The notes under the pieces: generated by a model | Database searches by the model: none | What the model was told of the DNA's origin: nothing | Seen by the model: the letters and a program-made list of their open reading frames with translations, nothing else | In this document: positions 1,663-56,724 of the stretch, piece by piece | Layout: each line of letters starts with the position of its first letter | How positions within the stretch are numbered: position 1 is the first letter of the stretch | Translations under genes and position numbers: made by a program | From: Alloascoidea hylecoeti | Taxonomy: Eukaryota | Reading direction: 5' to 3' | NCBI GenBank assembly: GCA_001600815.1 | Contig: BCKZ01000022.1 | Location: 152,982 to 216,981 of the forward strand | DNA: 64,000 nucleotides

Positions 1663-3020
1663 TGTATGTCAATTAATTGTGTAGAAAAGAAAAAAGAAAG
1701 AGGAAGAGGAAGAGGAATACTCTCTTTTATACCGTTTTATTATTGCTACCGGTATTATTTGGATGTACCGGGTACCCGGTGCCGGACACAGATATTACTG
1801 TGATGACATCGAATAATAATAATACGAATGAGTGGTCTCCACGTAAATCGATTTACGGAACGTCAACGGCCCCCCGAAATTAACGTTTCCGTAAATCATT
1901 TTTAATCGTCCGTTTACGTATATCACATGATATACATGTGACCATTACTACTGTATTGGGTCTCCCTGAAAACCCATAGTCAATCTAGCTACTAGCTAGC
2001 AGTGTTCAAATTCAGTGTTTACAGACAGACTGAGATTCTAAAAACTCATCGAGGAACATTCTTAAGCCTTATTCTTCTTAAATGAAACTTTCAATATCAG
2101 GGTTTGTATTACTCTGTAATCCTATTGATGATATTGATTATCACCATTCGGTAGATGATGCTGATAATAGCAATAGTGCTAGCATGGATCCTTGTTGGAG
2201 CGGATGGCATATCATCCACCTTAACCTAGATCTGATTAGAATAAGTTGAAAATGTACGAAGCTAATAATTGCTCATTTGCAATTGCTAATTCGCAATGGT
2301 TATTCTGCAATTGTCACTGTTGATGTAATAATTAGAGTCAGTCTTATGTTTACACTACTCAGCGTATATACCAGTATGCCTGGGTATCCGTAAATTTAAA
2401 CGAAACAAATGCCCAATTTCCGTAAGAAATTCCGTAAAGAAATTCCGTAAATTGTAAGTTGTGGCGGACGCCAATATGGATATCTACTAAACCTCGGTAA
2501 CTACAGGTACTGCTAGGATCTATAGGATATGAGCTATAGACATAGGTCGGATACCATTTATTTTTGGTCGGCGATAACGTTCTCTAGTAGTATATACATG
2601 TATTCAAAGGGATACACAGCCCGATCGCATTAGACATCTCCGTGCTGAATTAGAATTGGATGTTTTCTTTTTCTTTTTCTTTTTCTTTAACACTAAGGGA
2701 AAAGAAGAATATAATTAACGGTTATAACACTTGGAGTTGGGCTAAACGTCCATGGATATAGCCACGTGCGATCAATCATAGGCCGGGCCCAGAGGTTGCC
2801 CTTGCTAGACTAACGTAAAGTCTGTCACCCAATCCCAAGGAATAGTCACGTGTACGGGATACTTCGAGGATTGTAGATAAAGAGTTGCTATGTGCACTCT
2901 TACATAATCATCATGTCGGCACACGTGAGCACGTGGGCACGGGCACGGGGGTGTGAGGGTGTTTCCCCTCTCCAGTTGTCCACAAAGCAACCTGTCCCTC
3001 TCCATCCACCCACACTCCAA

Positions 3021-4748
3021 ATGGACTTCCACTCTCCGACCCTCTCTCAGCCCCTGCCGCAGCCTCTGGGCTCCCCAAAAGTGGAGGAGTCTCCCGAAAA
3101 GACCATTCCTCAGGACTCCCTGCTCATTCCCAACGACAACGAGAACGACCTGCTGGACTTGGGCATTTCTGGCCTTCCCCCTGGCCTTCCCCCTCGCCGT
3201 ACCTCCGGCCCCCACACCATGTCCCCCTCCGCCCCTGCTTCGGCTGTACCGGCCTCCCTCCAGGGCCTGACTCTCGGCCCGATTGGCATCACCTCTACCC
3301 CCACAACTCCACACCTCTCCCAACTGACCAACCCAACATCCGCAGCCCCTATGTCCACCTCAACCGTCGGAACTATAAACAGCATTGCTTCTCTCGCAAC
3401 AATAAATGGTTTGGAAAAGAAAAAGAAAACCGATGATAATGATGGTTTTAGATGGAATTATGATTTAAAAATTGAATATGCCAAAATTTATGCAAAACAT
3501 TGGATGAAGGATGAATTAACAAAAACTGAATTATATACCTTAATGTCAACAAGATTAAGAGAAATTGATGAAAGAGTAACTGTCACAAGATGTAAATATT
3601 TAGACGGTGATTTAAAAAAACTTTGGAGAGAATTAAAATATTTAGAAAGTTTACCTGATTATTCAATTAATGATGGTATGATTTCTTTACCATCTGAAAT
3701 TTGGAAATTATTTTCAAGTGCAACATCAAGATCAACAAGAACTTTAGCAGGTTGGAGAACAAGAAAAGTTGAAACGGATTTATATGCTTTATTAGATTGT
3801 GTTTATGTTGATCAAACAACTCCATTAGTACCTGAATTTAAATTAATGTCTGATGGTTCAAAAAAATTAATTTTACCAAATGGTAATTCTGGTTCTGGTC
3901 CTGGTCCTGGTCCATCTCCAAGACCTTCACCACAATATAGAAATACTTCATTTACAACAATAAATGGAAATTCAACAAATACAAATAATAATTCAAATTC
4001 AAATTTAAATCCAAATTCAAATTCAAATAATTCAAATAATTCAAATACAATAAGTGTTAATGGTATTAATTTTAATAGTTCAGATTTTGAAGAGCAATAT
4101 CAAAGAGTTCAAGAAATATTACGAAAAAGACGTGAAAGTCCAACATCAAATTCAAATTCAAATTCAAATTCTCAAACAAATAAAACAAATGGTTCAACAA
4201 ATGAAAATCCTTTCCCTGCAGGCTTATCATTAAATGGTGTTAGTATTCCATCACATTCACAATCACAAGCATTAACAACAACACAACAAACTAATGGCAA
4301 TGGAATTAATTCATCTCCACAAACATCATCACAAACAACAAGTACTGCTTCATTAATTCATACCCAACCATCATTACCATTACCACCATCCAAAAAAACA
4401 AGATATGAAAATGTACCATCAACTCCAATTACAACTACAAATCAGACATCTTCAACACCATTAACAACACAATTAATTAAACAATCATCATTACCATCAT
4501 CATTATCGCCACAACCACAATTTTCAACCCAATTACGTATAAATCAAACATTACATACATTATTATCACCATTAAGAGGATCATTTTTAATACCTTCCTT
4601 ACATTATCATGAATTATTTGTTATGGAACATCAACAAAAGGAAAATTTATTGGCAAGTTTATTAGTTTTTGAAGATAATTTAGAAGAAAGGGCAAAAGTT
4701 TATAATGCTTGGTTAGGTAGTGGTGGGAGTCCTTTTGGTAAAAATTAA
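3021..4748 (+). CDS. Hypothetical nuclear protein with a possible Myb/SANT-like helical domain and Asn/Ser/Thr low-complexity tails
   Basis: Long open frame (ORF track 2892..4748); ATG at 3021 (MDFHSP) is a plausible start; globular segment FRWNYDLKIEYAKIY...LKKLWRELK preceded by KKKK. Confidence 0.7.
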   Translation: MDFHSPTLSQPLPQPLGSPKVEESPEKTIPQDSLLIPNDNENDLLDLGISGLPPGLPPRRTSGPHTMSPSAPASAVPASLQGLTLGPIGITSTPTTPHLSQLTNPTSAAPMSTSTVGTINSIASLATINGLEKKKKTDDNDGFRWNYDLKIEYAKIYAKHWMKDELTKTELYTLMSTRLREIDERVTVTRCKYLDGDLKKLWRELKYLESLPDYSINDGMISLPSEIWKLFSSATSRSTRTLAGWRTRKVETDLYALLDCVYVDQTTPLVPEFKLMSDGSKKLILPNGNSGSGPGPGPSPRPSPQYRNTSFTTINGNSTNTNNNSNSNLNPNSNSNNSNNSNTISVNGINFNSSDFEEQYQRVQEILRKRRESPTSNSNSNSNSQTNKTNGSTNENPFPAGLSLNGVSIPSHSQSQALTTTQQTNGNGINSSPQTSSQTTSTASLIHTQPSLPLPPSKKTRYENVPSTPITTTNQTSSTPLTTQLIKQSSLPSSLSPQPQFSTQLRINQTLHTLLSPLRGSFLIPSLHYHELFVMEHQQKENLLASLLVFEDNLEERAKVYNAWLGSGGSPFGKN

Positions 4749-7277
4749 TGTTAATGTTAATGTTTGCTTTTTTTTTTTTTTTTTTTTTTTTATATTATCT
4801 ATTTTCATTTATCATGTTTTTTATATTCTTTAAAAATCAGAAAAAAGACAAAGAAAGAAAAAAAAAAAAAAGAACAGGTATATATATAAAAGTTTTCAAG
4901 ACAATTAACATATATAATAATAAACATTAACATATGACGATTATATATTTCAACTCAATTGTTTTAGTTTATTTTATTTTATTTTATTTTATTTTGTTTT
5001 TTCTATCTTATGTTTTATAATTTATAATTATAATCTTAAAAAATATTTATATTATATTAAAGTTTGAAAGTTGATCATGAATTTTAACATTTTATTTATA
5101 TTTGTATTTAATTTATTATATATATGAACCTGTTTCAATAAATAAATTATTCTTTTAAATAAATAGATAATTGAAACTAGGTATATAAAATTAAAATTAA
5201 AAGAAATGATTAGTTTCAAGTGCAAGACATACTATAGTAGACCTGATTATCTTATTTATTGTTAAGAGGCTGATAATTAGTACATTCTATGGTCTAAGTG
5301 GAAACCCCGTAATTATAAAATGAAATAAAAATCAAGATGAAAAAATCCAGAGATATTTTAACCACAATTCTCTGACATGTTTTATATTCTTTCAACGAGT
5401 ATTCTTCAAGAAAAGTATCCTCTAATTCAACTGTAAAACTTTCATCACAATCTTTCATCGATATCTTCTCCAGCTATATTACTGGTTATGAATCTTGTAA
5501 TTTATTTTCAATATTGTAATTGAATAGAGCATACGCTCTTGCGATTCCAGATTTTTAATTAATAGAATAAATCGAAGATCTGAAGCGCCAAAAAAATAAC
5601 ATATCACTAAGCATTTAAACTCTTAACATCTTTGATTTTCTGTCCCAATGTTATGTAATCAGCTTCCAAAATGCTTCCTCTCATACTCATTAGGATTAAG
5701 CAACTATAACTTTATTATGGTTATTTGGATCTAACGTACATTGCTTGGATCGGATCCGGGTAAACTATACCAGAATTATTAGTTCAATTCCTAAGATCAT
5801 GATGAGAATGAGAATTGTTGAAGTTTTCATTTGTTTTGCTATTATTTATCTATACTTAAAGTCAAGCACTGTAAACAGCCAGTATGGCTTATAAATGATA
5901 ATTTTATATGTAGGTCATAATCCTTATACTTTACCAGAAGATAGAACATTGGATAAACTTTATATTAATCCAATAATAAATTGAAAGATTTCTTGGCTTC
6001 GCTTTGTCTATTCCCAGATCTTTAAGCCAACCATAATATACTTTTATCCAAAACCATTAATTTATAGTCGACCACCATATTTTTATTTCCTGTTAATGTA
6101 AAAAGTTACATGTAAACTAAAGACATCCTCAACATTTGAAGAGAATAATTAACAAAAACAAATACATAATAACATTCTTTTGATAAGAAGACTTCGTGTA
6201 TTATGTTTGACGCAGATTTCATCCGTAATCCAAATTAATTTAGCAGTTAATTAGAAATTGGAATTACAATTAGTTTAAAGCACTTAAGGATTTTTGGGAA
6301 TTAGGGCGCCAGCTATTAAATATCCAAATTTTTTTTTTCTTTTCTACCTGCTCATCTTTTCTTCCTTCTATTCTTCACATCATTTTTAACCAATTAGTCA
6401 AAGTGAATCATAACAACTGTACCAATAATACAATAAGCTTCATAATTGTATCGTGTTGCTGGTGGAATAATGGCTGTGCCATTTAAAGAAAACTGACCAG
6501 AAGAATAATTTCAAAAAACAATTTGGGTTGAAATAATTGTAAGTACAGCGCCAACTATAGAGGAAAACAGCATTGGATAATAGTATATACTATTCTTGTT
6601 TCTTTAATGACTAAACATTAATTAAATATTCGCTGCTGAATCTAACATTCAATGCCATCTCAACGGTCCTAAAACCATTTCAATCTATTTTTAGACAAAT
6701 TTTCTTTTGTTTATTTGGTTCTTGTCATTCATAAACGGTCCTTTACACGCCGGAAATATTCCATATTCATGTTTGTTTTTTCAAAAGTGTTGTTAAATGG
6801 TTAATTCGGCAATCGATAAGCCGTGTATACTCAGATTTCGTTTTTCAATCCCTTTAGTTGGCTACAATTTATTTTTATAGTTGCAATTACCTGAAATCAC
6901 GCTTAACTAAATTCTAGAAGCCATTCAATTAAAAATATATTATCGCTATATATTTCAAGTTCAACGTGCATATGTATACCGTATTTAGTAATTTAAAAGA
7001 TAGCAAATATGACAAGCGTGATGAATAAGGAGAATCTTCTTTTTCTTCTCAATTATCAGTTTACACAAACTTTACGATAATAACGGTAATTATCTCGCAT
7101 TTCAAATATCATTGGGGAGTATTATGGCACACAAAGTGTCACAAACACAAATACAATTGAAAATACACACAATAATTAGGGTTAGTAAAAATGGAGAGTT
7201 AAAATAGATTAAAAAGACACAACATTCATGTCGCGACCACAAAATGCATACATACAGCCCTTTTATAAACACAGTTT

Positions 7278-7974
7278 CTATAGCGCTATGAAGATAGAAA
7301 AAATAGAGACAAGTATATAAAAAGTTATAGACCCGTATCGGTGTACAACTAGTTCTTTTAATGTTTGATTATTTTTGATTCCAACAGTTATATTAGCAAC
7401 AAGGTCACTATGAGCGATACAAAAAGCAAGGTCAATATTATGATCGTCTGCAATTATAAACTCCACATTTGTAACATCTTTATGACTATCAATAATACTT
7501 TGTCTTGTTTCATCACTAACCCAATTATCTTTCTTAACGAAAAAGCACCAAACTTTAAATATTCCATTATTTGCGTTTGTCCAAAATTGTATGTCGGATT
7601 CATCAGCTGTTGTGATCATCTTCATCAGTTCATCTGTCATCGTTAAACATTGCTGAAGAATTTGTGGATTAGAAATAATAGTTGTTGTTGCTTTAACCGC
7701 ATAATAACCGAAAAAGTTCCCTTTTAAGTTTCATTGAAGCAAAATCATTTAGTTTAGTTGCCAAAAATTGCAATTGAAAGCAAAAACCACTTTGTGATTT
7801 CACAATATCGTGAATGGTTAGGGTTACCAATCCCACAAATTTAAGTTGAAAATCAGGACGTTTGACCAGTGTAACGGTGGGGTAGACGACGTTTCGTAAA
7901 TTCTTCAACATTAATTCCCAGACTGGTTTGCTACATGATTGACCTTGAAATTTACTAGATTGGTTTACGGTCAT
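7278..7974 (-). pseudogene. Orphan ORF of about 230 codons split by one +1 frameshift
   Basis: ORFs 7693..7974 and 7278..7640 join into one frame (MKLK-GNFFGYYAVKATTTIISNPQILQQCLTMTDEL) if one A is skipped in CTTAAAAGGG near 7720. Confidence 0.4.
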
Positions 7975-8521
7975 TGCAATATACCAAGGCTAAAATTATT
8001 TGATCAGGTGTGTATTTATTTTTTTGAGGAAAAACTCATTTTATTTGAGGACTTGCCTAACCAATGTATCCACAGAGTTTGTACCTGTAAAAGAAGTTTA
8101 GGGTAGCCTGGCTGGAAAAATTAAAAAGATATCTGACGATGGTTTAAGCACTTGGTTATAGATTCTATAAATATCCTAAAGGCAAATTTCAACCCAATTG
8201 CTATGCTCAAAAATTCCCTAAAACTATTCGAAGTGGAATTCCTAACCACTAACTTTTCTAGTAAAATGAATTCTGTTCACTGTTCTTGAATTTTACGGAT
8301 TCCACATTAAATAAACTAGTGGAAACTACACATCATTCATCAACATGGCCGATTATATTGTACAGAATGATCGAACATTAAAGAACTACGCAGCCGAATC
8401 TTTAACTTATGATTAAAAGGTGGACAAAATTACAAGTAGAGACATTTTATAACTACTACTACCATATATAAATTAATAAAGTATCTAAGTCTTGGTTAAA
8501 TAAAACAACTGCTTTCAACAA

Positions 8522-10559
8522 TTAAGTGTTCATATAAGTAGAAGGATCAACCCCTTCTTCAGGGAACTCAGGAATATTGACTTCAAATCTTTCTTGAATC
8601 TTCGCCAAAACTTGTTCATCATCTGGACTAGATACAAAAGAAATGGCTAAACCTTTGGTACCAAATCTACCTGCTCTTCCAACACGATGTAAATATTGAT
8701 CAGCTTCACTTGGCAAATCATAATTGATTGCCAAGTTAATTCTTTCGATATCAATACCTCTTCCAAAAACATCAGTTGAAACACAAATTCTCTTTTTAAA
8801 TTCTTTAAAAGATTTATAACGAGCAATACGTTCTTCTTGAGGTATACCAGAATGTACAGCAATTGAAGGAAAATTACAATCACATAACAAACGATTTAAT
8901 TCATCTGCTCTTGCTGTAGATTTAACAAAAATAATCACTTGATTAAATTCTAAAGTATCCAACAAATATGATAACTTTCTGTTTTTTTCCTTTTCTGCCA
9001 ATTTACAATAATATTGTTGTAAACCATGTAAAGTCAATTTAGTTTCATTATCAACGTAAATTTCAAGAGGGTTTTGCATAAATTTTTTGCAAACCGGACG
9101 AATCTCTTGAGATAAAGTAGCAGAAAACATCATTACTTGCTTTTGATGAGGAGTAGCACGGAAAATTTCCTGGACATCTCGTCTCATATCTATTTGATCC
9201 AACACCTTATCACATTCATCAACAACAAAGACCTTAACATTGTTTAAACGTAAATACTTGTCACGGACAAGAGCATTCAATCTACCAGGAGTGGCAACAA
9301 CAACGTGAGGAGCAGTAGCTTTATCTTTGATTAAGTCAACATCTTTTTGAATTGGGGTACCACCATAAAAGACTGCAGTACGGACATCTGGCATATATTT
9401 TGAAAATCTAGCATACTCATTTCTAATTTGATAAGCCAATTCACGAGTGTGACATACAACAATAACGGAAACCTCACCAGGAACAGGGTCCAATTGTTGT
9501 AGAGTAGACAAAACGAATACGGCAGTCTTACCAAGACCAGATTTGGCTTGACATAAAACATCAGTACCAAGAATTGATTGAGGAATACAAACTTGTTGGA
9601 CTATATGGATTAAACGTTAGTAACTGTAACTGGTAAAATTTGAACGATAGACTTTTGATTTTTGCAAAGAAAAGAAACAGACAATGGGGTTGAAATTGAT
9701 ATTCCTTGAATTAGTACGAAAACATTATCCATATAAACTGAAAAAATTAAATTAATTGCCCTTTTATTTTTTTTAATTTCTGTAAGATGTATCGTATAAT
9801 GGCACCTCTTTTAGAAATACCTGTGGCCGAAAGCTTATCAGAAAAATTAAAGAATCTGATAATCAAGCACAGTGAAAGCACAGACAATGCCATTTTTTGG
9901 GGTAGCAAATATCGGCTGAATTATCTTGCGTAGTCCCAAAGGGATAAGATTTCGTGAGATATCATACCAAATATTCATGTTCCCCAACCAACTTCAGGCG
10001 TGTTTTTTGATTAATAATTCACCCAACACCACCATAAAGCAATTGTTGAAAGTAACATCAATAGGTAGAAAAATCTCGGCATAATAAGTAGAAATGAAGC
10101 TCTTAATGATTGATGTACCGGTCGTCGGGAATTTTGAGAATTTCAAACCCCTGGCTGACGCGTCGACAGAAAAAACAACAAAACCACCAGCTTGCAGAAT
10201 TGTCAAAAATATAATAATAAGGGAAAATAAAAAAAGTTTTCCTCTGATACGAATAAATATTCAAGTATCCCATTGTGTTCTTTCTTGCATCAAGAAATAG
10301 TCTGATAATATAAAAAAGCAATTCAAAATAACTAACCCTCTGAAGGATGTTCAAAACCACAATCGACAATAGCTCTCAAGAGTTCTGGCTTAAGTAAGAA
10401 ATCTCTGAAACCAGTAGAATGGATACCGACGTAACTTCCTTTCTTATCCCCATCATCGCCGGCCTCACCTGCGACCTCCGATGGTTTGGTTTCTGTTGGA
10501 ACTGTAATTTCCTCTGAGTCAGAATAATCGAGGAGTTCTTCTTCGGCTTCGTTCGACAT
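8522..10559 (-). CDS. SUB2: DECD-box RNA helicase Sub2/UAP56; exons 10559..10337 and 9600..8522; intron 10336..9601
   Basis: [15 protein letters not shown] join, [15 protein letters not shown] and HRVGRAGR motifs; intron GTTAGT...TACTAAC(9622..9616)...TAG. Confidence 0.97.
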
Positions 10560-21061: not shown

Positions 21062-22627
21062 TAATATTAGTAATGTTTGATTTTGAATTTGATAGTTTGC
21101 ATGTAATCGTTGGATAATTTAATATCAATTCTTAAAGGGAAGCTCGATATAAATAAGTATTATTTTATGGGGTATAGCTATAATGGTATACACATTAGGA
21201 ATGATCAATAATTGCTTTTGATTGTAAATTGTTAATGGGGCAGTATGCTCGGTCAAGGATTGTATTGCAATTTTTGGATATATCTCTTTATAAATCTATT
21301 ATTATTTAATTATGATACTGTTGAGAATTGATAATATAGCCAACAAAACGCTAACTTCTTTTTTACGCATAATGATAAACTCTCATTAACAAAGATTAAT
21401 TAAACTTTATATATTTAAAGTGGGAGAAGTCTATTATACCAATCTCCTCAACACAAAATGGAATAGTATAATACAATTAAAGCTTGCAACTGATGGGTTA
21501 AAACATTTGTAAAATTTGGATATAGGCCGTCTTATCTTGCAGTCGATAAAAAATCTTAACGAATCTCATATGCACACACTCCATGGTGAGTCCATGCACA
21601 AGCATCAACCTTATAAAGAGTATAGACCGATTACAGGCTTGGTATGCACTCCCAGCTATAGGATCTATATCATATTAAGATAGATCCATTAATATTGATC
21701 ATTTTTGTGATTGTTAATTATCAATAGCGGCATGTAATTAATCAATACTAATATATATAAATTATATTGATGTCTTGCTATGCATATTGAAATATTCGAT
21801 GTTTAGTTTGTCAGTGTTTGAGTAACACCAAGACAATTCCAAGTTTATTTATATTTATGACCTTGACTCCTACAAATAATATATTGTGTAATATCTAACT
21901 CTAAAATACACAGATGCAGTTATTTTAAGGTTATACAGAGGAGTCAAGTTGGAGTTGTTTATTAGAGGGGAAGTGTGGACCTATATATCTACACACAAAT
22001 ATATATTTATATAGGCTATAGTTTCTGTAAAGGAAAATACTATGAAGGTTACAGTTTCCATAAAGGAATCTACTATATAACGTACCTACTACCTAGGTAG
22101 GCAATATCTTGAACTAAATATTCTGCCTATTGATGCACTAATGTTCGCCCATGTTGAACACAAATTTAAGCGATCCATTAACTTTTGGCCTCATATGTGA
22201 TTTTAGTCCTTCTGATATCTTTCCTCCTTAAATAATATTTTGTTTCATATTGTATTGAGCTTCAAAGCTATTTGGGTTTCCTAATACAGAGGAATTTTCT
22301 ACTTTTGCTAGCTAAGGAAAATAAACAAACAGGGGAGAAAAAAATATAACAAATAATTTTTACTAAATTCCCGGTCGGGCCTATTTTGTAAAAACCAATA
22401 GACTTAACGAAATTTGCACACCACCTATACTTCTATTCGCGCGACTATGAATATATTTTAAAATAATAACCTTATACTATTAATTTATATTTAACAATTA
22501 ATTAATTAATTAATATTATTTAAATCATAAAATTTATATAGTTACATAGTTAAATTTAATGAAAAAGGAGAATTAAATCACCTTTTTATTCTTATATTTC
22601 TTTATACTTATTTTATAATTATGTCGA

Positions 22628-22879
22628 TGTTGATTATATGTAAGAACATGGTGGAACAAATTTATAGTTCATTATTTAGATTAACTAGACTAAATAGTTT
22701 TGGGGGATTCCATAATTTATATGGAGGAATTCCCACATTTTAGAAAGTATCGTAAAAATATAATATAATAAATATATTCATATTTAATTTCCAAGAGTTT
22801 AAGAACAACGTGTTTATACAATCTGAGGACATCAATTAACAATGAGCGAACAAGAATCAACATCTAATTCTATTCAACA
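22628..22879 (+). mobile_element. 5' LTR of a Ty1/copia-type retrotransposon (252 bp)
   Basis: Starts TGTTGA and ends TCAACA (terminal inverted repeat); followed immediately by TGGTAGCG; internal sequence recurs at 47866..48021. Confidence 0.75.
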
Positions 22880-23196
22880 TGGTAGCGGCGCAGTGTATAC
22901 AAGAATAAACAGTGAAGGAAGAGCGGTCTTTGATGGTAGTGCTAAACACGCTAAAACATTACCAAAGTTAACAGAACCAAGCAGGATTCGATAGATGGAA
23001 ATATTTTCTAATGTCAACTCTAAACCGAATTGGGTTAGCAAAATATATAACGGATGATAGCATTTATCATTCTGGTGTTAAGGATGGAGGGGATAAACCA
23101 ATATATGAAATCCTTACTGGAACAATGTTATTGCAACATGATAAAACATTTGAAATCCTACTGGCAACAGTATCAAAATCAATCTCCTTGTCTTGA
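22842..23196 (+). pseudogene. Truncated, frameshifted copia-type gag N-terminus
   Basis: ATG lies inside the LTR as in Ty1 (MSEQESTSNSIQHGSGA vs Ty1 MESQQLSQHS..SHGSA); after a +1 shift at 22980 it reads LPKLTEP-AGFDRWKYFLMSTLNRIGLAKYI...LLATVSKSI, a copia gag-like pattern. Confidence 0.65.
22880..22889 (+). promoter_or_regulatory. Primer-binding site complementary to the 3' end of tRNA-iMet
   Basis: TGGTAGCGGC directly after the LTR CA end; the S. cerevisiae Ty1 PBS is TGGTAGCGCC. Confidence 0.75.
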
Positions 23197-23266
23197 ATTG
23201 ATTTTGATACTGTTGCCAGTAGGATTTCAAATGTTTTATCATGTTGCAATAACATTGTTCCAGTAA
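23114..23266. repeat. Perfect inverted repeat: 70-bp arms (23114..23183 and 23197..23266), 13-nt loop
   Basis: TTACTGGAACAATG...CAAAATCAAT is followed after CTCCTTGTCTTGA by its exact reverse complement. Confidence 0.97.
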
Positions 23267-25596
23267 TTATCCCTCAAGAATTACTCTTATAATTTTATGA
23301 ATTTTTATTAGACAAAAGTTTATAAAGCTTTAGCTTATTAGAGTCCAGGAGCCTCTCAGAATAATTTCATGTTCGACCATGGAAACCTGTTAGGATATTA
23401 CTATATGAAGAATAATTAATGAAGATCATAATGTTGTTATATAATAGGAAAGTTTACCTATTCATATACTAATCTATAAGGCCTTACAGTGAACCTAGAC
23501 TTTTTAGAAGTGAGATCTTAAAGAATTAATGACATGTTTATATGTACTATATATATCTAACGAAAACAAAGAAAAAACAAAGAACCCTTGATTCGAATAA
23601 GCAGGAGATTTTCGAACAGTCTATATGAATGGCTGAACATTAGTTCACCAACTGGCCGATTATTTAGTGCTTTACGTAAAGGATTATTTTATTTAAAGAT
23701 AGGTGATTATTTGGGACATCACATTACCAAATACTTATAGGATAAAATAACCGATAATGATTTATCTGAATAACCTAATAATAAGTGTATATGGCCGGAA
23801 TAGAGTGTCTCACATATCCATCAAGTGGCTTAAATTAAGTGAAATGATTGTATCAATTTATACAGGCAATCGATAAATGTATACGGCAGAAATCATTATA
23901 TAGGATATTTGACAGGTAAATTTTTATTTTGTGAATATTATTATGCAAGATACATTTAAGTAATCCATTGTATATAAATATAAAAATTTATGCAAATCTC
24001 CAAGACTTTTTGTTTTTTGGATCTTATCATATGGAATATATCTTTAAAACCAAAATTTAGTTAGAGATCAATCATTGTTAGATCTCATTCTTTAAATAAA
24101 GACAAGAAATGTCAGCCTCTTTGGTGGAAGAATATTTGATTTATGATTAGAAAGCTGCTTATCTGCGCATATTTTCGATTCCTATCGGCGCTACTTCATA
24201 GATGTGTCAGAGCCACTCAAAGCACTCAATTCATTCGAAGACTTGAAAGTAACATCTACTAGGGTCATTTGAGATGTGAGGGGATTTTTAAAGTTGTGCT
24301 TATTCTTAACATTTAATGAAATCGTGGAAATAATGAATTATACGATGAGCATGCATATGCTTTCATCTTTACGACATATTCCTGGAGAGACACCAAAGAC
24401 CTCGAAAGTCTATAAATAAAAATAACTACCAGATTCTTCTGTGTCTTATTAAATGCATTAAAATTTACATAGATAATAAATAATTTCGTTAAATTTTAAA
24501 AAATGTTTTGGTTTTTGTGATTATCGGTGGGCAGTTGTTAACATCAGTTAAATTTAATTCCAGAGTATATTTACTTTATACGAATCTTTCTGCTAAGAAT
24601 TATTCAATTTATATACTTATATTTAGCGAAAAATAGTTACCTGTAAAATAAAAGAGTTAAGTATCATAACAGGCTAGGCCTTGATATAGCTATATTAAAA
24701 TTTTGTAAGCAAAAATATTCCAATTAAGCAGATCAAATTACTCCGCCAACTTACTTGAACAAGCATAACCAGTCTACTACCCACAAAAAAAGAAGAATTT
24801 TGGATTTGTTAATCAGTCAGTTCCTATTGTTTCTGTCTTTGTGAGTTCCCCGCTTTGAGACAAATAGAGCCATATGCTCCAACAATGGCCATAATATATA
24901 ATAACTTGTTTACATTCCAGCTATTTGATTATAGATAGTAGATACTATTCCTATTAGTATTTCCTACCTATACAGATTAGTTCCCGAAGGAATTGATTTT
25001 CACAATCAAGTAGCAACTCGAGCTCCCATTCATTATTTTGCCATTAAGATATTATGTGGGATGGCATTAGTTTAGATAACAACAATTATTGCAAAGTGGT
25101 AAATATAGTTTATAATTATAATAAATATTATATAAACTTGTAATAAGGAAATAATTGAAGAAAAGATTCACCTGGGCTTTACCACAACATCAATTGCCAT
25201 TGATCAAAAACGCGCTTTCAACATCTATAATAGACCGTTATCATACACGATCGAGATCCTAATTAAATTTATGATATAACATGATGAGAAGATAATTCAA
25301 GATATACTGCACCTATATCTAAGATCTAGTTCTATAAAATTATAGATCTGTTTTAAATTTACTATATTCAGGGGTAACAACATGATTACATCACATTACA
25401 TCATTACATCATATCATCGAGAAGACAAATAAGCAGACAATCACAGAATAACAACAACCAAATAACTAATGTAATGGGAGGATAAGGGACAATATGAAAA
25501 TGAAGAATCTGTGAAATGGGTAGATAATGGGGAGATAAATTTTTTAAAATGATCATTACAGTAAAGTATATGTTTATGTGAAGTGCCAAAGAAAGA

Positions 25597-26831
25597 TTAA
25601 TCCAATTGAACCCTTAATTCATGCTTGGGTATTGGAACAAAATTATCCAAATCAATGCCCTCTCTTTCCAATAATGCCCTTTTAGCATGTAGTGGTACCA
25701 ATTTGTTGTTCAATTCTGGAGCAATACTTAATTCACTCCTATCGTAATTAAATAATTCGGGCAATTCCTTTGGTGGAGCATTAGGATGTTTAGAATCCTT
25801 TAAACGTGTAGCTTGATCTCGTAGTTCGTCGAAGAAATGATGAGTTAATACATCAATAGCTGAGATTCTTAACCCTGGTGAATATTCTAAAACTTTTTCA
25901 ATCAAATCGATAGAATCTGCGGGAGCTTTCCTTAATACTTTTGAAAATGGTCGAGCTTTTATTTGAGGGAACTTATGCTCCATATAAGTTGGATTCATTG
26001 TTCTGATTTGTTCTTTCGTAGGTGTTCCCAATATCTTAATAATTTCTACCAGTTGATCAATGCTCGATTCACCAGGGAAAAGAGGCTGTCCGAGCATAAG
26101 CTCAGCCATGACACATCCAGCTGACCAAATATCAATTTTTGTAGTATAATTGACAGCTCCAAAAATCAATTCTGGAGCCCTATAATACCTAGAGCAAATA
26201 TAAGAAACATTTGGTTCCGTTGGTATAAGAACTTTAGCTGAACCAAAGTCACAAAGTTTTAAAACTCCAGATCTTGTATCTACAAGCAAATTTTGTGGCT
26301 TAATGTCTCGGTGACAGATCCCTTTAGAATGAATATAAGCTAATGAACGAAATAATTGATAGGTATAAAGCTTAACTTCAAGAATAGGCATTGTTGTTCT
26401 CTGTTTTGTAAAATAGTGTGAGGCATGATAAACTGTTTCTGGGACATACTCCAGTATTAAATTCAAGTACACCTTGTCACGATCAGTTGTCGAGTAGAAA
26501 AAGGCTTTTAGGTCTACAACGTTAGGATGATGAACCAATCTCATTATTTGGAGTTCACGATTCTATATATCTTCTTATTAGATTAAATCCTCGGATATTA
26601 CTTTTGATTTTAAAAATAATTAAATAATCAGCTAATTGCTTGACATACCTTGAAACGTTTATCCTGAAGAACACGCTTAATTGCAGCCTCCTCATTATCA
26701 GGTTGTAACTTCGTTTGAAAAACTACACCAAAAGAACCATGACCAACCATCTTACACTGTGTATAAGATAGTTCTCTGGACTCACCGGTGCGTCCATCTA
26801 TAACATTTTCGTGGACAATTTGTACAGACAT
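25597..26831 (-). CDS. RIM11: GSK-3 family kinase; exons 26831..26649 and 26562..25597; intron 26648..26563
   Basis: [21 protein letters not shown] join, [32 protein letters not shown]...TAG intron. Confidence 0.93.
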
Positions 26832-28068: not shown

Positions 28069-28599
28069 TTAAGTTTGTTTGTCTTGTAAATATTTTTCAG
28101 CTCCTATAGTTTCTAACTTTTCAGCCTTTCCCAAAACTTCAGTTTCCATATTTTTTGTATACTCAATTAATTGTTTTTGAACATCAGGTATGAATGTGGC
28201 TAAAATTCTGGCTGCAATCAAACTAGCATTTAAACTATTGTTAATAGCGACAGTAGCAACAGGAACACCTCTAGGCATCTGGACAATTGAAAGTAAAGAA
28301 TCTAATCCTTCAAGATTTGAAGCACGAACAGGAACTCCAACAACTGGTAAAATAGTCATAGCAGCAACCATTCCTGGTAAATGAGCGGCACCACCCGCAC
28401 CAGCGATTATAACCTTAAGTCCCCTATCGCATGCAGTTGTCGCATACTTGACCATTCTAATTGGTGTTCTATGGGCAGAGACGATCGTAATTTCATAACT
28501 AATGTTAAAACTTTTAAGAAGAGTTGCTGCTGCGGTCATTACTGGGAGATCTGAATCAGATCCCATAATTATACCCACTAAAGGTTTCTGAGAAGACAT
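28069..28599 (-). CDS. purE: Stand-alone PurE (AIR carboxylase/N5-CAIR mutase) domain, equivalent to the C-terminal part of Ade2
   Basis: [60 protein letters not shown]; 176 aa; no PurK/ATP-grasp coding sequence upstream. Confidence 0.88.
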
Positions 28600-28891
28600 G
28601 ATAAATAGAAGTAATAATAAATGATTTATGAATTTGAGAATGAAATACCCATTGAAAAAATTGTGAAGTATTTGTAATTCATTAATAATATAATAAGTAC
28701 TAAAGCATGATCTGTTAATTAAAGAGCTAACACCCAACAATTCGATGTTGATAGCCAAATATTGTTTACATCAAGTGGCCGAGATTAAGTGGAGTCACTG
28801 TACTATCACCACGTGCAACGATTTAAATATCAGCAAGAAAGAGAAAGAGAGAAAGATATGATAGATTAAACCTGTAAAATGGGTAGCTAAT

Positions 28892-29396
28892 CAATGTTTC
28901 TTCTTTATTAATATCGGAAACAACACCTGAAGTATAAATCATTCTTGGACCTAAAAACCAAGAGTAAAAATCATCACCACGATCATAATGACCTCTAACT
29001 TGTTCTTCATCTTGGGATTTTGAATGCATTATAACTTCAGGCATTATACCTAATAAGAAATATTTGAATAAACTATAAGTAAAATTAAAAGTTGTAGTTA
29101 TGTGACCAATCATGTTTTAATTCGAGAACATCTAAAGCATCACCTTTAAATTCAATTTCACCATTGAAAAATAATTCTTGAAAAGTTTCCATTGGAATTT
29201 TTGAATTCTTATACTTGGCTTCTAATTGTTTATTATTAAATTTAAGATAATGATCAATTGGACGATTTGGTAATTTAACTTTTTCATTTAATCGTGGAGT
29301 ATAAGTTGATAACACAGTCCAGTAGGCCATTAATATTGGTAAAGCTAATAATACTGTGAAAAATAACCAAGAGTTGGAACCTAAGATCACAACCAC
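28892..29396 (-). pseudogene. MTS1: Fragment of sphingolipid C9-methyltransferase (MTS1/CFA-synthase family)
   Basis: KIPMETF.E.FF.GEIEFKGDALDVLE.KHDW and HSKSQDEEQVRGHYDRGDDFYSWFLGPRMIYTSG in two frames joined by a roughly 10-nt insertion near 29100; both ends missing. Confidence 0.8.
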
Positions 29397-46663: not shown

Positions 46664-47813
46664 ATGAATAATTACTTTATAATGGCCTATTGGATAGCAC
46701 TGATGGTTAAAGATAATCAAGTTGATCGTTCAGTACTTTCTAACTATGTTGACTCACCAGCTACAGAAGTTAAGGAGATGACTACAAGTGATGAAGCTAA
46801 ATTTCTTCCAGTATTAAGTGCATGTTGTGGAAATCAAAGTAAGCTTAGTCGCTTAATTAAAGGTGTTCCATTGTATTTTGATTTACTGGGTCAAGGCGAC
46901 ATGGATGTTAAAGACTTTCCAGTGGTTGGTGTTAAGTATAGCATCGCAACTACAATTGATGGATTCTCTAATGAAGTCAATACCGCTTACGTATGGAGTG
47001 GTAAGTGTTGCGAAGATGCGTATAATTGTGCTATCACTATGATGGCTCAGACATATCTTAATCGAATTGTGACTAGGAGCAGTAATGTTGCAATCCCATC
47101 AGATGGTGATGTTGTTAAGTTAGTAGCAGGAGGTAGTTGTCAGGGTATGAACAACCATTCAATGTGGGCAGCTATAATTCATTACTGTATAGATACTGGT
47201 CAGGCTGACCTAGAGGAAGCGATTACAATAGCACCTAGCTTACGACAAAATAAGTACCTTGAGGTTGTATACTTACCGCAATCTGTATTGCGTGGCGATT
47301 TGGTTATGCTAATGTTGAGAAGGCTAACCAAAGGTACACGGAGATTCTGTCCTAGTGCTACAATGGGGAAATTTATTGGTAGGGTTCATCAGATGGCTAT
47401 TCATGCGTATGAGTAAAAATATTATTTTATCGTATGAGAATTCGAAAACGAAGCATTGAAGGCATAAAGCTATTGAATTATTTAAAATAGGAGGCATTTC
47501 ATATCTTGGATTAACACGAAATTCAACTCTTAGGACCCTTGAAGGTACGAGAAGAATGAATTGGGCTGATGCTCTAACTAAAGATAATCTTGATCATCTG
47601 AATAAGTTTATATTTGAGTCTTGTTGGATAATTAATGCCCCACGGCGTGCGCTACATGGTGGGGTGGGTATATATTCAAGCAATAAATTTAGGGGTCCTG
47701 ATCCTCTCACTGAAACTGATACTGTTGCAATTCTTAGGAATGAGCTAATTAAAATTGGTGAAAGAGATGTAACTAAGCTTATACCTAAAAAATTAATTTT
47801 TATTAATTGGTGA
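46664..47813 (+). pseudogene. Putative endogenised dsRNA-mycovirus gene (chrysovirus/totivirus capsid- or P4-like), with one frameshift and one stop
   Basis: Intronless, less AT-rich than flanking genes, atypical codons; 250-aa ORF continues after a shift at about 47410 (MSKNIILSYENSKTKH*RHKAIEL...MNWADAL...); motif MWAAIIHYCIDTGQADLEEAITIAPSLRQNKYLEVVYLP recognised only by recollection. Confidence 0.5.
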
Positions 47814-47822
47814 AATATAAAT

Positions 47823-48021
47823 TGTTATCATTATACATGAAGTTAAACATAATTATTATACCTTTGTGGATTCCATTATATATGACGATGAATTCCCACA
47901 TTTTATAGAAGTATCGTAAAGATATTATATATTTATAATATATTATTTTTCAAGAGTTTTATAGTAATTAGTTGTTTATAATCCTAAGGACATCATCTAT
48001 TTTATTATGAGTGAATCAACA
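47823..48021 (+). mobile_element. Degenerate solo/partial LTR of the same family as 22628..22879
   Basis: Collinear shared blocks GGATTCCAT, GAATTCCCACATTTT, AAGTATCGTAAA, CAAGAGTTT, AGGACATCA, ATGAG.GAA, GAATCAACA; no PBS follows; left boundary approximate. Confidence 0.7.
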
Positions 48022-51747: not shown

Positions 51748-54700
51748 ATGGAAGACTTCACGTTGTCCATCGAGACTCTTCAGGCTCTTCATGACCCCAA
51801 GTCCCTCCTCAACCTGCAAAATTTAGGTGGCATTCATTCTCTTGCCGAAGCCTTGCACTCTGATATAAAAAATGGCTTGGACAAATCCACTCCCGACGTT
51901 GCCAAAAGACAGCAGCTTTATGGAACTAATATAATCCCAACCCCAAAGCCAAAGTCTTTTTTATATCTGGCCTGGATGGCTCTGCAGGATCAAGTCCTAA
52001 TCATGCTTTCTATAGCTGCTGTTGTCTCTTTAGCCCTTGGTCTGTATGAGACTTTTGGCCAACCTCCAGAGCTGGATAGTTTGGGGCGTCCACAACCAAG
52101 AGTTAAATGGGTTGAAGGTGTTGCTATCATAGTTGCCATCTTAATTGTTATTATTGTTGGTGCTGCAAATGATTACCAAAAGGAACGCCAATTTGCTAAA
52201 TTAAATGCTCAAAAAGCTGATCGTGAAATTATTGTTATTAGAAGTGGTAAAGAAATTTCAATATCAATTTACGATCTAAATGTTGGTGATGTTATTATTC
52301 TAGAAACTGGTGATGTTATTCCTGCTGATGCTATATTAATCTCTGGAAATTGTGAATGTGATGAATCTTCAATTACTGGTGAATCTGATACAATTAAAAA
52401 ACTTAATGCTGATGATTCAATTAAATCATTAGATTCTCTTGTAGTTTCTAAAAAGCATCCTGATCCTTTTTTAATTTCTGGTTCAAAAGTAACAACTGGT
52501 TTATGTCATGCTTTGGTTACAACTATAGGTGTAAATTCAATGAATGGTAAAATTATGATTTCTTTACAAGTTGAATCTGAACCAACTCCATTACAAATTA
52601 GATTAAATTCAATTGCTGATGGTATTGCAAAATATGGTGGTTTAGCTGCTTTAATTTTATTTATTGTTTTATTTATAAAATTTATTGTTAATATAACTCC
52701 AAATCATAAATATTATAACCTAACTGGTAGTGAAAAGGGTTCAAAATTTTTAGAAATTTTAATCGTTGCTATAACTTTAATCGTTGTTGCTGTTCCTGAA
52801 GGTTTACCATTGGCTGTTACATTGGCATTGGCATTTGCAACTACAAGAATGTCAAAAGATGGAAATTTAGTAAGAGTTTTAAAAGCTTGTGAAACAATGG
52901 GTGGTGCTACTTGTGTTTGTAGTGATAAAACTGGTACATTAACTGAAAATAGAATGCATGTTGTTAAAGGAAAATTAGGTTTAAAGAATTTTAGTAAAAT
53001 TGATGATTCTGCTCCAAATCCTAATATTATTATTGATCAATTATCAATAAATTTAAAACAAATGTTATTATCTAATATTAGTATTAATTCAACTGCTTTT
53101 GAAAATGAAAAATTAATTAATCCACCAATTTTTACAAATGAAAAAGGAAAAGAAAAAGTTAAGAAAATTTCAATTTTTGGTAAATTATTTAATTTTACAA
53201 CTCCAAATTCAAATGATCATAAAAATTTAATTTTAAATCAAAATCAAAATCAAAATGAAAATGAATCTGGTGAATTATTTATTGGTTCAAAAACAGAAAC
53301 TGCTTTATTATTATTTGCAAAAGATTTTTTTGGTATGGAAACTGGTACATTAGATGAATATAGAAAATTACAACGTACTGAATTAGGAATTGAATCAATT
53401 ATTCAAATTATACCATTTGAATCTTCAAGAAAATGGGGTGGTATTGTTGTTAAATTAATAAATTCTGATAATTATAGATTTTATATTAAAGGAGCAAGTG
53501 AAATTGTTTTATCAAGGACTGGACAAATTATAACAGAAAATGATAAAATTAAAGAAATTGATTTAAATTTATTTAAAGAATTAACAAATGATATTAATGA
53601 TTTAGCTTCACAATCTTTAAGGACATTGGTTTTAAGTTATAAAGATTTTGAAAATTTAAAACAATGGCCTCCATTAGATATTACATCTGATGAAAATTCA
53701 AAAGAAGCTGATATTGATTTATTATTTGGTAAAGTTTTAAAACGTGAACAACAACAAACAAATAAAATTGAAAATGAAAATGAAAATGAAAATGAAAATG
53801 AAAGTGAAAAAGAAATTATTGAAGCTGAAAGTCCTGCAACAATTATTGTAACTCCATTCCCAGAACCAAAACAAGAAGAAGAAAAAGAAGAAATTCAATT
53901 ATCAAAAACTTTAATCTTCATTGCATTAGTCGGTATTCAAGATCCATTAAGACAAGGTGTTACAGAGTCTATACAACGATGTCAACATGCAGGTGTAACT
54001 GTTCGAATGGTAACTGGTGATAATTTATTAACTGCTAGAGCAATTGCTTCATCATGTGGTATATTTAAACCAGAAAATGGTGGATTTTGTATGGAAGGAC
54101 CAGAATTTAGAAAATTAACTTTAAAACAACAAAGAAATATTGTACCACATTTACAAGTTTTAGCAAGATCAAGTCCTGATGATAAAAGAATTTTAGTTCA
54201 AACATTAAAAGATTTAGGTGAAGTTGTTGCTGTTACAGGAGATGGTACAAATGATGCACCTGCATTAAAATTAGCTGATGTTGGTTTTTCAATGGGTATT
54301 GCTGGTACTGAAGTTGCTCGTGAAGCTTCTGATATTATTTTATTAACTGATGATTTTACATCAATTGTAAATGCTATTAAATGGGGTCGTTGTGTTTCAA
54401 CATCAATTAAAAAATTTTTACAATTTCAATTAACTGTTAATATTACTGCTGTTGTTTTAACTTTTGTTTCTGCTGTTGCTTCTTCTGAAGGTGAATCTGT
54501 TTTAACTGCTGTTCAATTATTATGGGTTAATTTAATTATGGATACTTTTGCTGCTTTAGCTTTAGCAACTGATAAACCAAGTGAAGATATTTTAGATAGA
54601 AAACCAACTAATAGAAATAGTTCATTAATTGCTGTTTCTACTTGGAAAATGATTATTGGTCAAGCAACAATGCAATTAATTGTTACATTTACAATACATT

Positions 54701-55620
54701 TTGGTGGTGAAAAGATTTTTTATCCAAATGGTCATATAACTGATGTTGAACAATTAAAATTAAATGCTTTAACTTTTAATACTTTTGTTTGGTTACAATT
54801 TTGGAAATTATTTGTTACAAGAAAATTAGATGAAGGTGATGGAATATCAAATGTTAAAGATAGAATAACATTAGAAAATTTAAATTTTTTTAGTAAATTA
54901 ACAAGAAATTGGTATTTTTTGGGAATTGCTATTATTATTGGTGCTATTCAAATCTTAATAATGTTTGTTGGTGGTAAATCTTTTTCTGTTTCAAGACAAA
55001 CTGGTGCAATGTGGGGTACTGCAATTATTTGTGGTATGATTTCATTACCATGGGGTGTTGTAATAAGAATTATACCAGATGAATGGGTTATTAAAATCTT
55101 TCCTACAAGATTATTTAATTTTTTGGTAATGGTATTTTCATTTAAATGGTTAAGAAATAATAAAAAAGAATTTGAATTTGATAATGCTGATTTAGAATCA
55201 CAAATTGTTAATCATGAAAAAGAAGAATTATATTTAAATGTTCCACAATTTGGACAAATGAGAGAAGAATTAATGACATTAAGAAAAATTCGTGGTAAAG
55301 GTAGATTAGGTCAATTAACTTTAAAATGGAAATCAAAACCAATTAATGCTTTTAAAAATTGGAAAGAATCAAGATCAAATTCTTTTACTTCAACAACTGT
55401 TAATGGTGAAAATAATGGTGCAGATGGAAATTTAAATCCAAATTCAAATCAAAAAGGTGGATTTTTAGCTCCTCCTTCTCCATCTTCAAAATGGTCAAGT
55501 TCAAAATCAAGTGGCTCTAGTTTAAGAGCTTTGGCTGTTGTACCTGCTGTGGTTGGTGGTGCTGTTGCTGGTTGGAATTTTCATCCTGATCAATTACAAA
55601 CTCCAACTAATAATAATTAA
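51748..55620 (+). CDS. PMC1: Vacuolar P-type IIB Ca2+-ATPase
   Basis: TGES, VPEGLPLAVT, DKTGTLT, TGDN, GDGTNDAPAL, LLWVNLIMDT. Confidence 0.96.
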   Translation: MEDFTLSIETLQALHDPKSLLNLQNLGGIHSLAEALHSDIKNGLDKSTPDVAKRQQLYGTNIIPTPKPKSFLYLAWMALQDQVLIMLSIAAVVSLALGLYETFGQPPELDSLGRPQPRVKWVEGVAIIVAILIVIIVGAANDYQKERQFAKLNAQKADREIIVIRSGKEISISIYDLNVGDVIILETGDVIPADAILISGNCECDESSITGESDTIKKLNADDSIKSLDSLVVSKKHPDPFLISGSKVTTGLCHALVTTIGVNSMNGKIMISLQVESEPTPLQIRLNSIADGIAKYGGLAALILFIVLFIKFIVNITPNHKYYNLTGSEKGSKFLEILIVAITLIVVAVPEGLPLAVTLALAFATTRMSKDGNLVRVLKACETMGGATCVCSDKTGTLTENRMHVVKGKLGLKNFSKIDDSAPNPNIIIDQLSINLKQMLLSNISINSTAFENEKLINPPIFTNEKGKEKVKKISIFGKLFNFTTPNSNDHKNLILNQNQNQNENESGELFIGSKTETALLLFAKDFFGMETGTLDEYRKLQRTELGIESIIQIIPFESSRKWGGIVVKLINSDNYRFYIKGASEIVLSRTGQIITENDKIKEIDLNLFKELTNDINDLASQSLRTLVLSYKDFENLKQWPPLDITSDENSKEADIDLLFGKVLKREQQQTNKIENENENENENESEKEIIEAESPATIIVTPFPEPKQEEEKEEIQLSKTLIFIALVGIQDPLRQGVTESIQRCQHAGVTVRMVTGDNLLTARAIASSCGIFKPENGGFCMEGPEFRKLTLKQQRNIVPHLQVLARSSPDDKRILVQTLKDLGEVVAVTGDGTNDAPALKLADVGFSMGIAGTEVAREASDIILLTDDFTSIVNAIKWGRCVSTSIKKFLQFQLTVNITAVVLTFVSAVASSEGESVLTAVQLLWVNLIMDTFAALALATDKPSEDILDRKPTNRNSSLIAVSTWKMIIGQATMQLIVTFTIHFGGEKIFYPNGHITDVEQLKLNALTFNTFVWLQFWKLFVTRKLDEGDGISNVKDRITLENLNFFSKLTRNWYFLGIAIIIGAIQILIMFVGGKSFSVSRQTGAMWGTAIICGMISLPWGVVIRIIPDEWVIKIFPTRLFNFLVMVFSFKWLRNNKKEFEFDNADLESQIVNHEKEELYLNVPQFGQMREELMTLRKIRGKGRLGQLTLKWKSKPINAFKNWKESRSNSFTSTTVNGENNGADGNLNPNSNQKGGFLAPPSPSSKWSSSKSSGSSLRALAVVPAVVGGAVAGWNFHPDQLQTPTNNN

Positions 55621-55887
55621 TTAATGGTTCTATTTTTTAATCAAAAATTAAAAATTGGATAATTTTTTGTTTTTTTATGGGTACTAATTTCATTTTTTTT
55701 TTTTTTTTTTTTTCATCAATTTAGCTCTTGTGTATATTATTATTAATAAAATATTTTTTTCTAAATATTTTTTTTTCTTTTCTTCATTTTATTATTGTTT
55801 TTAAAGTCTTGATCTTGATAGATGGTGTTTTTATTGAATTTTTTTTTAAAACTTTCTTTATATTGGTATATAAATATTTGGATTATA

Positions 55888-55927
<40 letters not shown>

Positions 55928-56724
55928 ACTAAATTATCAATTTTGTAATTACAATTGTAAAGTGCAATACTAATTTCTATAATTCAAGAATTACACTAAA
56001 AAATTTAAAGAATGATTAATTGATATATATTCGAGGACGAATATGCAATGGAACAATATTGATTGATTATTATCAAAGTAATAGATCTTGTAGATCTAAG
56101 AATTAACGTGTGTTGCGATTAAAATATATATTAAACCTGGGTACTCATTTCTAGCTGTCGATTAAGCTCAGCTCTATGTCCAAAGGTACCTAACATCCTG
56201 ATCGCACTTTATCCCAATTTATTTCGCCATGTTCTTGACACGTATTTCGTTACCATATTCGACAATATGTAGAGCAATTAGTTCTCCATTTCTTGAACAT
56301 CTCGTCTTCGAAAACGATTAATTCGTAAATCTTATTATTAGAGAAATATTAGCCCACGTGATCTTCATAGGGTGATCCCCTTCCCCATATAAGCTCGTCC
56401 CTCCTTCTCTATGGTCCCACATAGTCGTTGTATATCCGATTACCTATATCGCTAATATAGAGATATACAATGATGCACATTGGGTTCGGTACGCACCCCA
56501 TACATACATCACTGTATACAAGTGTACATGTACTGGAACCTGTTAGGATTTGGGTATCATAACCGTTTCCGTGACCAAGTAGTTTGGTTATCTCGGATAA
56601 CGGTGAATCCGTTTTAAATATGTGTTAGTTTTCTACTTTAATCTTTATTTAACAGAACTCTCTAAGATCCAGATCTCACTCCGTTGTTTTCGTAGTTACA
56701 CTCCGACACACATAAACAGACCAA

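Follow-up and report, generated by a model that had tools for sequence, protein, structure and literature searches.

The 70-nt palindrome that ends a truncated LTR retrotransposon of Alloascoidea hylecoeti is probably the non-functional scar of a rearrangement, in which a fold-back or template-switch duplication was seeded at an 8-nt inverted repeat native to the gag gene. The locus was analysed within a window of 64,000 nt, corresponding to positions 152,982-216,981 of the forward strand of contig BCKZ01000022.1 (GCA_001600815.1), and all coordinates given here are those of the window. The evidence from public sequencing runs takes the form of 31-mer contigs, not reads, and contigs from four runs (X1-X4) were aligned on window positions 22400-23600. 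X1 and X3 derive from one sample, which is possibly the source of the assembly itself. X2 is a wood-decay metagenome from a different study whose flank contigs show 0 differences from the window; X1, X2 and X3 together thus represent two studies. X4 carries the same organism label and comes from a third study.

The element opens with a 5' LTR of 252 bp on the plus strand (22628-22879; TGTTGA...TCAACA) that is present in multiple copies in the genome. Its termini are TGTTGATT, at 22628, and ATTCAACA, ending at 22879, and in all four runs contigs from other copies part from the locus at 22627/22628 and 22879/22880. Word depth in X1 is 3,078-9,737 within the LTR compared to 55.6-63.8 in the flanks, summed contig depth not being equivalent to copy number. 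The sequence, the divergence of the contigs and the depth together identify a repeated LTR with TG...CA ends which, on comparison with the contigs, is full length and lies inside the range of family variation. No TATAWA box was found in the LTR, a result that carries no information either way. Adjoining the 3' end of the LTR is a PBS-like sequence on the plus strand, TGGTAGCGGCGC (22880-22891), the start of which, TGGTAGCG, we take to be complementary to the 3' end of the initiator tRNA-Met, as in Ty1. A second LTR at the 3' end was not found, and the absence of a 3' LTR with a target-site duplication marks the element as truncated; the 5-mer GTCGA that lies directly before the LTR has no copy in 23267-25600. 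The 64-kb window holds 0 tRNA genes and 0 Rfam families and therefore no Pol III target that would explain the insertion site. A centromere-like AT-rich island was also considered and ruled out, because the GC content of the 4.5-kb intergenic region around the element (27-31%) is close to that of the window (30.6%). Elsewhere in the window an LTR fragment (47868-47995) is 77% identical to LTR positions 22705-22834 and is followed by ATGAGTGAATCAACAG, which resembles the start of gag. On this similarity the fragment is taken to be another and older remnant, from a related LTR family.

The gag reading frame begins at an ATG within the LTR, and its codons 1-44 (22842-22973, plus strand) were recognised from the translation and its match to P0001, an 869-aa copia-type polyprotein encoded on an NCBI-derived 3.9-kb contig. 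The domains of P0001 recognised by Pfam are a copia-type gag (PF14223), a zf-CCHC zinc knuckle and RVT_2 (PF07727). Beyond codon 44, gag continues in the next frame as far as P0001 residue 117 (22974-23183, plus strand), as determined by tblastn and protein alignment. The first gag piece (22842-22991) is identical to P0001 residues 1-47 at 42/47 positions (89%) and the second (22990-23194, in the next frame) to residues 53-118 at 62/66 positions (94%). It is through this identity of 89-94% to the N-terminus of P0001 that the copy is tied to a family with copia-type gag and RVT_2 domains; the gag pieces of the window had no Pfam match of their own. The frameshift is due to an 8-nt deletion (22973-22974, plus strand) relative to the family copies, as the 8 letters missing after 22973 are present in the multi-copy family contig in all four runs. 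When P0001 was compared with the 64 kb by tblastn, no coding sequence of the element was found downstream or elsewhere, and pol is absent. A protein search with P0001 returned, besides P0001 itself, one protein at E<=1e-5, with 27% identity, and the family is evidently a very isolated, lineage-specific one of the Ty1/copia type. Taken on its sequence, the locus is identified as the remnant of a dead, truncated LTR retrotransposon of this type, comprising a 5' LTR, a PBS-like sequence and a frameshifted partial gag. An earlier note on this DNA had described a truncated Ty1/copia-like element with an LTR and about 115 codons of frameshifted gag, and the identity to P0001 bears out that description, with about 117 gag codons remaining in the element.

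The remnant ends in two arms of 70 nt each that are 100% complementary and stand 13 nt apart. Inverted-repeat analysis places the left arm, which is sense gag, at 23114-23183 on the plus strand and the right arm, which the translation also shows to be gag on the minus strand, at 23197-23266. The perfect 70-bp inverted repeat with a 13-nt loop that had been claimed for the locus was recovered exactly at these positions. Apart from pairs of poly-A and poly-T tracts, the 64 kb contain no other close inverted repeat that reaches 24 nt. The predicted RNA fold of 23090-23290 has an energy of -121.4 kcal/mol compared to -32.6 +/- 4.0 kcal/mol for shuffled sequences (z = -22, with 0/200 shuffles as stable), and a transcript of the locus is thus predicted to be able to form a long RNA hairpin with a 70-bp stem. 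The poly-T tracts that face poly-A tracts in the window, at 4760-4885 and 55646-55950, are runs of 25-40 nt lying 23-190 nt apart, and both pairs are situated downstream of ORFs (2913-4748 and 51748-55620). The first of these ORFs, on the plus strand and 611 aa in length, has no Pfam family at E<=0.01.

The origin of the palindrome is best seen in its centre. The minus strand translates from 23264 to 23176 as unbroken gag, TGTMLLQHDKTFEILLATVSKSIQDKEID (ending ...SKSIQDKEID), and this reading frame passes from the right arm over the loop into the left arm, of which it covers the inner 8 nt. By tblastn, P0001 residues 93-124 align to 23270-23175 in the same direction. The multi-copy family contigs match 23176-23266 with 1 mismatch and then run into downstream gag in all four runs; the letters with which they leave the window sequence give, as reverse complement, the gag residues that come next in P0001, ...LIRGVKASFD. 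Since the family contigs continue through the repeat into downstream gag, the 8-nt repeat and its spacer pre-exist in the family. The loop (23184-23196, plus strand), shown by translation and tblastn to be the 13-nt spacer of gag inverted with respect to the LTR-side arm, is accordingly native gag sequence, as are the innermost 8 nt of both arms, which is the main new point of this analysis. The native inverted repeat, AAATCAAT and ATTGATTT with the 13-nt spacer between them, occupies 23176-23204 and is the putative switch point. As the loop is the native spacer and the innermost 8 nt of the arms are the native repeat, the fold-back would have begun at a short inverted repeat that already existed, and the duplication does start at such a repeat with its native spacer.

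The arms differ from the multi-copy family at 1/70 positions. The exception is a base specific to the locus that is present in both arms (23148 A and 23232 T) where the family contigs have another base. Because the arms are identical to each other and have this locus-specific base in common, one arm was copied from the other at this locus and not from another element.

Beyond the right arm lies single-copy flanking sequence (23267-23600, plus strand) that contains neither a 3' LTR nor a copy of GTCGA. In X1 the contig depth of the right flank after 23266 is 55.6, compared to 63.8 for the left flank. The second junction is therefore one with unrelated DNA, the single-copy flank beginning at 23267 or, alternatively, at 23274. 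The latter position follows from a possible further 7 nt of inverted gag on the minus strand (23267-23273), which is the reverse complement of 23090-23096 and skips 17 nt. A match of this kind has a chance of about 1.3% and was noticed post hoc; it suggests one more short template jump. A larger and older palindrome that included the flanks was also considered and was found to have insufficient support in a single 40-nt match at 80%. This 40-nt inverted repeat of 80% identity (22113-22152 and 23629-23668; E 5.7e-5 in a small search) brackets the Ty remnant at about 500 and about 360 nt from its ends.

An artefact was also considered, in which the real locus is structured otherwise and the assembler, or a chimeric fold-back read, made the perfect palindrome; fold-back chimeras are known to yield such palindromes. 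The outer junctions of the palindrome are confirmed in three runs from two studies. In X1, X2 and X3 the contig of the left flank enters the LTR by 30 nt and that of the right flank starts at 23237 and runs into the flank. With contigs starting at 23237, at least 30 nt of antisense gag are joined to unique flank in the reads. The family contigs of the same three runs break at exactly 23143 and 23266, the arm borders, as a real junction demands. For the interior, among the contig pieces listed 0 lie on 23144-23175 in any of the four runs, so that for the centre of the palindrome the assembly is the sole source. The depth of the bin 23138-23178 had been considered as a sign of two arms, at 2x that of a single copy. 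This was rejected, as partial overlap of two multi-copy contigs explains the depth: in X3, (190x6 + 150.9x3)/41 gives 38.85, compared to the 38.8 observed. Exact-pattern scans of metagenome contigs gave 0 matches for the junction and 0 for the flank. The lack of a listed piece over the interior and the possibility that X1 and X3 are the assembly's own data speak for an artefact, but the joining of antisense gag to unique flank from 23237 in the 31-mer contigs of both studies and the precise breaks at the arm borders speak against one. So do the right arm, which has the locus-specific base and not that of the family, and X4, an independent run in which this junction still has the outermost 16 nt of the right arm. 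On balance we think it very unlikely that the palindrome was created in the data.

X4 represents a second allele. Across 628 flank positions, 5 substitutions (0.8%) separate it from the window, in addition to indels. The contig of its right flank extends from 23600 to 23251, where 27 letters matching 23118-23144 follow. The joint from 23144 to 23251 skips 106 nt, and 6 letters fit either side of it; these correspond to direct repeats of AACATT (23145-23150 and 23251-23256, plus strand) that bound the deletion. What remains in X4 is an inverted repeat with 16-nt arms and a 15-nt spacer. In this run the breaks of the family contigs fall at 23147 and 23262 instead of 23143 and 23266, which fits the absence of the full junction in X4. 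Evidence for the deletion comes from a single contig (depth about 9) of one strain, for which an artefact of the library at a hairpin is possible in principle. Chance cannot account for an inverted match of 16 nt at this same junction with the flank. The simplest order would be that the palindrome formed first and that the deletion between direct repeats followed in the X4 lineage. The palindrome is on this evidence placed before the split of these strains, and is common to them but not conserved, because X4 has lost its middle 106 bp. The earlier note had proposed that other strains be checked for the hairpin; the retention to be expected of a maintained hairpin was not seen in X4, which keeps only the 16-nt arms (one contig, one strain).

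The same comparison bears on the age of the arms. At a divergence of 0.8% the expected number of differences between the arms is about 0.6 (70 nt x 0.008 = 0.56) and the probability of finding none is about 0.57. With such a probability, perfect arms require neither extreme youth nor maintenance, whereas the earlier note had taken them to imply either a recent origin or maintenance. Palindromes are reported to break easily and to suffer deletions when their arms are long and highly identical and their spacer is short (PMC7999016, available portion), and the loss in X4 is behaviour to be expected of such a palindrome.

We infer both the mechanism, be it template switch or fold-back, and the order of events from the arrangement of these sequences. 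The element would already have been frameshifted by the 8-bp deletion in gag. A growing DNA strand would have copied gag up to the first 8-mer, AAATCAAT, paired with the second 8-mer, ATTGATTT, 13 nt away on the complementary strand, and from there reversed its course, copying the spacer and a further 62 nt of gag. Perhaps after one further short jump, it would have been joined to unrelated single-copy DNA, with loss of the remainder of the element, its 3' LTR and its target-site duplication. The expected product of such a sequence of events would be sense gag, the native spacer in inverted orientation, antisense gag with perfect arms and an abrupt junction, and this matches what is observed. 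Later, in one strain, a deletion of 106 bp between 6-nt direct repeats would have left arms of 16 nt. In yeast, inversion of the spacer together with extension of an arm has been described as the signature of an intermolecular template switch begun during copying of the first arm (available text of PMC8604942). At the present locus the spacer lies inverted with respect to the long copy of gag on the LTR side. Fold-back inverted duplications have been documented at DNA breaks in yeast, with priming at microhomology and capture of the other end through end joining (PMC11724301, in the part available). The same end product could also result if a strand folded back at a break and one arm was then mostly lost.

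An origin during reverse transcription deserves consideration beside these chromosomal routes. The reverse transcriptase would have switched templates at the 8-nt repeat during cDNA synthesis, and a break in the chromosome would have taken up the aberrant cDNA, with its one LTR. Template switching at short homologies is known of reverse transcriptases, as is the capture of Ty cDNA at breaks, and both would suit a locus whose left end falls exactly at the LTR terminus and whose right end has neither LTR nor target-site duplication. However, this origin would have to combine an early abort in gag with a full 5' LTR, a product of the late steps of reverse transcription, and a chromosomal fold-back or template switch explains the same facts with documented precedents in yeast. 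The two origins predict the same product and the present data fit both; weighing the points above, we consider the reverse transcription origin unlikely.

A different kind of proposal concerns not how the palindrome arose but what it might do. A transcript from the LTR, should its promoter still be active, would form a hairpin of 70 bp, the consequence of which would depend on the RNAi genes of the host. About three siRNA duplexes could then be cut from the hairpin and loaded on Argonaute against the active family, making the remnant a defence locus by chance or by selection. Favouring this are the very high predicted stability of the hairpin RNA (-121.4 kcal/mol, z -22), the full-length LTR, which is within family variation, and the match of the arms to the multi-copy family at 69/70 positions, by which the diced products would be on target, if made. 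A precedent exists in Naumovozyma castellii, where palindromic loci are the most prolific sources of siRNA and give 74.1% of the 22-23-nt siRNA reads, and where transposable elements or Y' repeats make up the majority of siRNA loci (PMC7528652, available portion); the statement of the earlier note that palindromic loci are siRNA sources in this yeast is thus broadly confirmed. The proposal is nevertheless weakened by X4, in which the middle of the palindrome is absent so that the structure is not conserved even within the species label, by the probability of about 0.57 that perfect arms are expected by chance at this divergence, and by the purely mechanical origin that a native 8-nt inverted repeat offers. 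It is further weakened by the host, which belongs among the early-branching Saccharomycotina and not near Naumovozyma, and by the distribution of RNAi, the machinery for which is reported to have been lost many times and to be present in roughly 20% of Saccharomycotina species (available parts of PMC13017519). The available supplements of that paper, one figure file aside, yielded no table of RNAi genes by species. Within the window itself, none of 21 ORF translations (19 distinct ORFs of at least 81 aa and the two gag pieces) scanned against Pfam contained a PAZ/Piwi or RNase III domain.

As a rough estimate, the presence of RNAi (0.2), a read-through transcript (0.5) and dicing (0.8) multiply to less than 0.1 for any siRNA output, and a selected role would be less likely than any such output given the X4 allele. 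On non-conservation and on these priors, an siRNA or defence function of the predicted hairpin is unproven and unlikely, and we hold it highly improbable that the hairpin acts as an siRNA trigger. More improbable still is an extended form of the proposal, in which, in an early-branching lineage remote from the budding yeasts known to have RNAi, the accidental fold-back is transcribed from its own LTR and feeds the hairpin into a retained Argonaute/Dicer pathway. Heritable siRNAs would then be produced against a live family of about 99% identity and the locus would be a polymorphic 'vaccination scar', full in some strains and collapsed in others. The scar of a fold-back or template-switch duplication thus remains the preferred reading of the palindrome.

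The position of the host was approached through a cysteinyl-tRNA synthetase ORF in the window. An identical database entry aside, it has no relative with more than 64% identity, and its matches include Wickerhamomyces at 62% and Nadsonia at 61%. A quick IQ-TREE analysis was made with 38 of the 120 listed sequences (the identical entry, 30 named matches and 7 further top matches, with 82 left out), and placed the window sequence in a set with 99% support together with Sugiyamaella, Nadsonia, Lipomyces and the outgroup Saitoella. By this single-gene placement the host is assigned to an early-branching lineage of Saccharomycotina, away from Naumovozyma and Candida. A separate observation concerns an ORF of 250 aa on the plus strand (46664-47416) that matches the N-terminal domain of a fungal dsRNA virus capsid (PF21685, E 6.5e-17, 62 bits). 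It is followed in a different frame by an open stretch (47460-47813, plus strand) with no Pfam match. Taken together (46664-47813), the two have the appearance of an RNA-virus capsid gene that has become endogenous and frameshifted, directly beside the LTR fragment described above. Past contact of the host with a dsRNA virus would be relevant to the question of RNAi.

Two further genes of the window are of unusual structure. An ORF of 176 aa on the minus strand (28069-28599) encodes a stand-alone PurE/AIR carboxylase (PF00731, 212 bits; TIGR01162, 208 bits). Fungal ADE2 proteins normally carry an N-terminal ATP-grasp part, which this ORF is without; a short ORF upstream of it (28823-29113) has a weak match resembling cyclopropane-fatty-acid synthase. 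The PurE ORF may be a split, decayed or transferred gene. A protein-kinase ORF on the minus strand (25597-26544) begins at position 52 of the Pkinase profile, and short ORFs lie just upstream of it on the same strand (26555-26831). A 5' intron or a frameshift is likely here.

The locus is a new example of known processes, namely a template-switch or fold-back duplication at a short inverted repeat followed by collapse of the resulting palindrome. As such it is a clean natural case of how a long perfect palindrome can grow from a short inverted repeat native to a retrotransposon gene and cut the element short, with a second allele that shows later collapse by microhomology deletion. It is useful, though not surprising, as an illustration of template-switch/fold-back mutagenesis outside laboratory strains. 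Should the host have RNAi, the two natural alleles, with stems of 70 bp and 16 bp, would offer a ready test of the silencing of live relatives by an accidental hairpin.

Compared with elements of the Ty1/Ty2 type (Pseudoviridae) of budding yeasts, the locus is alike in its TG...CA LTR with TGGTAGCG directly after it, and its family is alike in having a polyprotein with a copia-type gag, a zinc knuckle and RVT_2. In Ty1 the gag ATG lies inside the LTR and the PBS is thereby translated; the gag ATG of the window locus likewise lies inside the LTR. Unlike these elements, the window copy has a 5' LTR only and about 117 gag codons. With the siRNA palindromes of N. castellii (PMC7528652, as far as available) it has in common an inverted repeat derived from a repeated element, the transcript of which would fold into a hairpin; it differs in that the host is early-branching and in that the palindrome is partly deleted in another strain.

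The closest likeness is to rearrangements described in yeast. As in fold-back inversions (PMC11724301, available part), the duplication at the locus was seeded at a short pre-existing inverted repeat and its far end was joined elsewhere, and as in template-switch arm extension (PMC8604942, available part), the spacer is inverted alongside the extended arm. In contrast to most of the events described in the available parts of such reports, where the tracts at breaks are about 5-34 bp and the arms of natural S. cerevisiae cases reach up to 16 bp, the tract at the locus extends 62 nt beyond the 8-nt seed. The event at the locus also differs from the fold-back and template-switch events reported in yeast in being coupled to the loss of several kb of the element. 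Finally, the X4 allele, a deletion between short direct repeats within the arms, resembles the behaviour of unstable DNA palindromes, but unlike these the palindrome of the window survived long enough to be common to strains that are 0.8% apart in their flanks.
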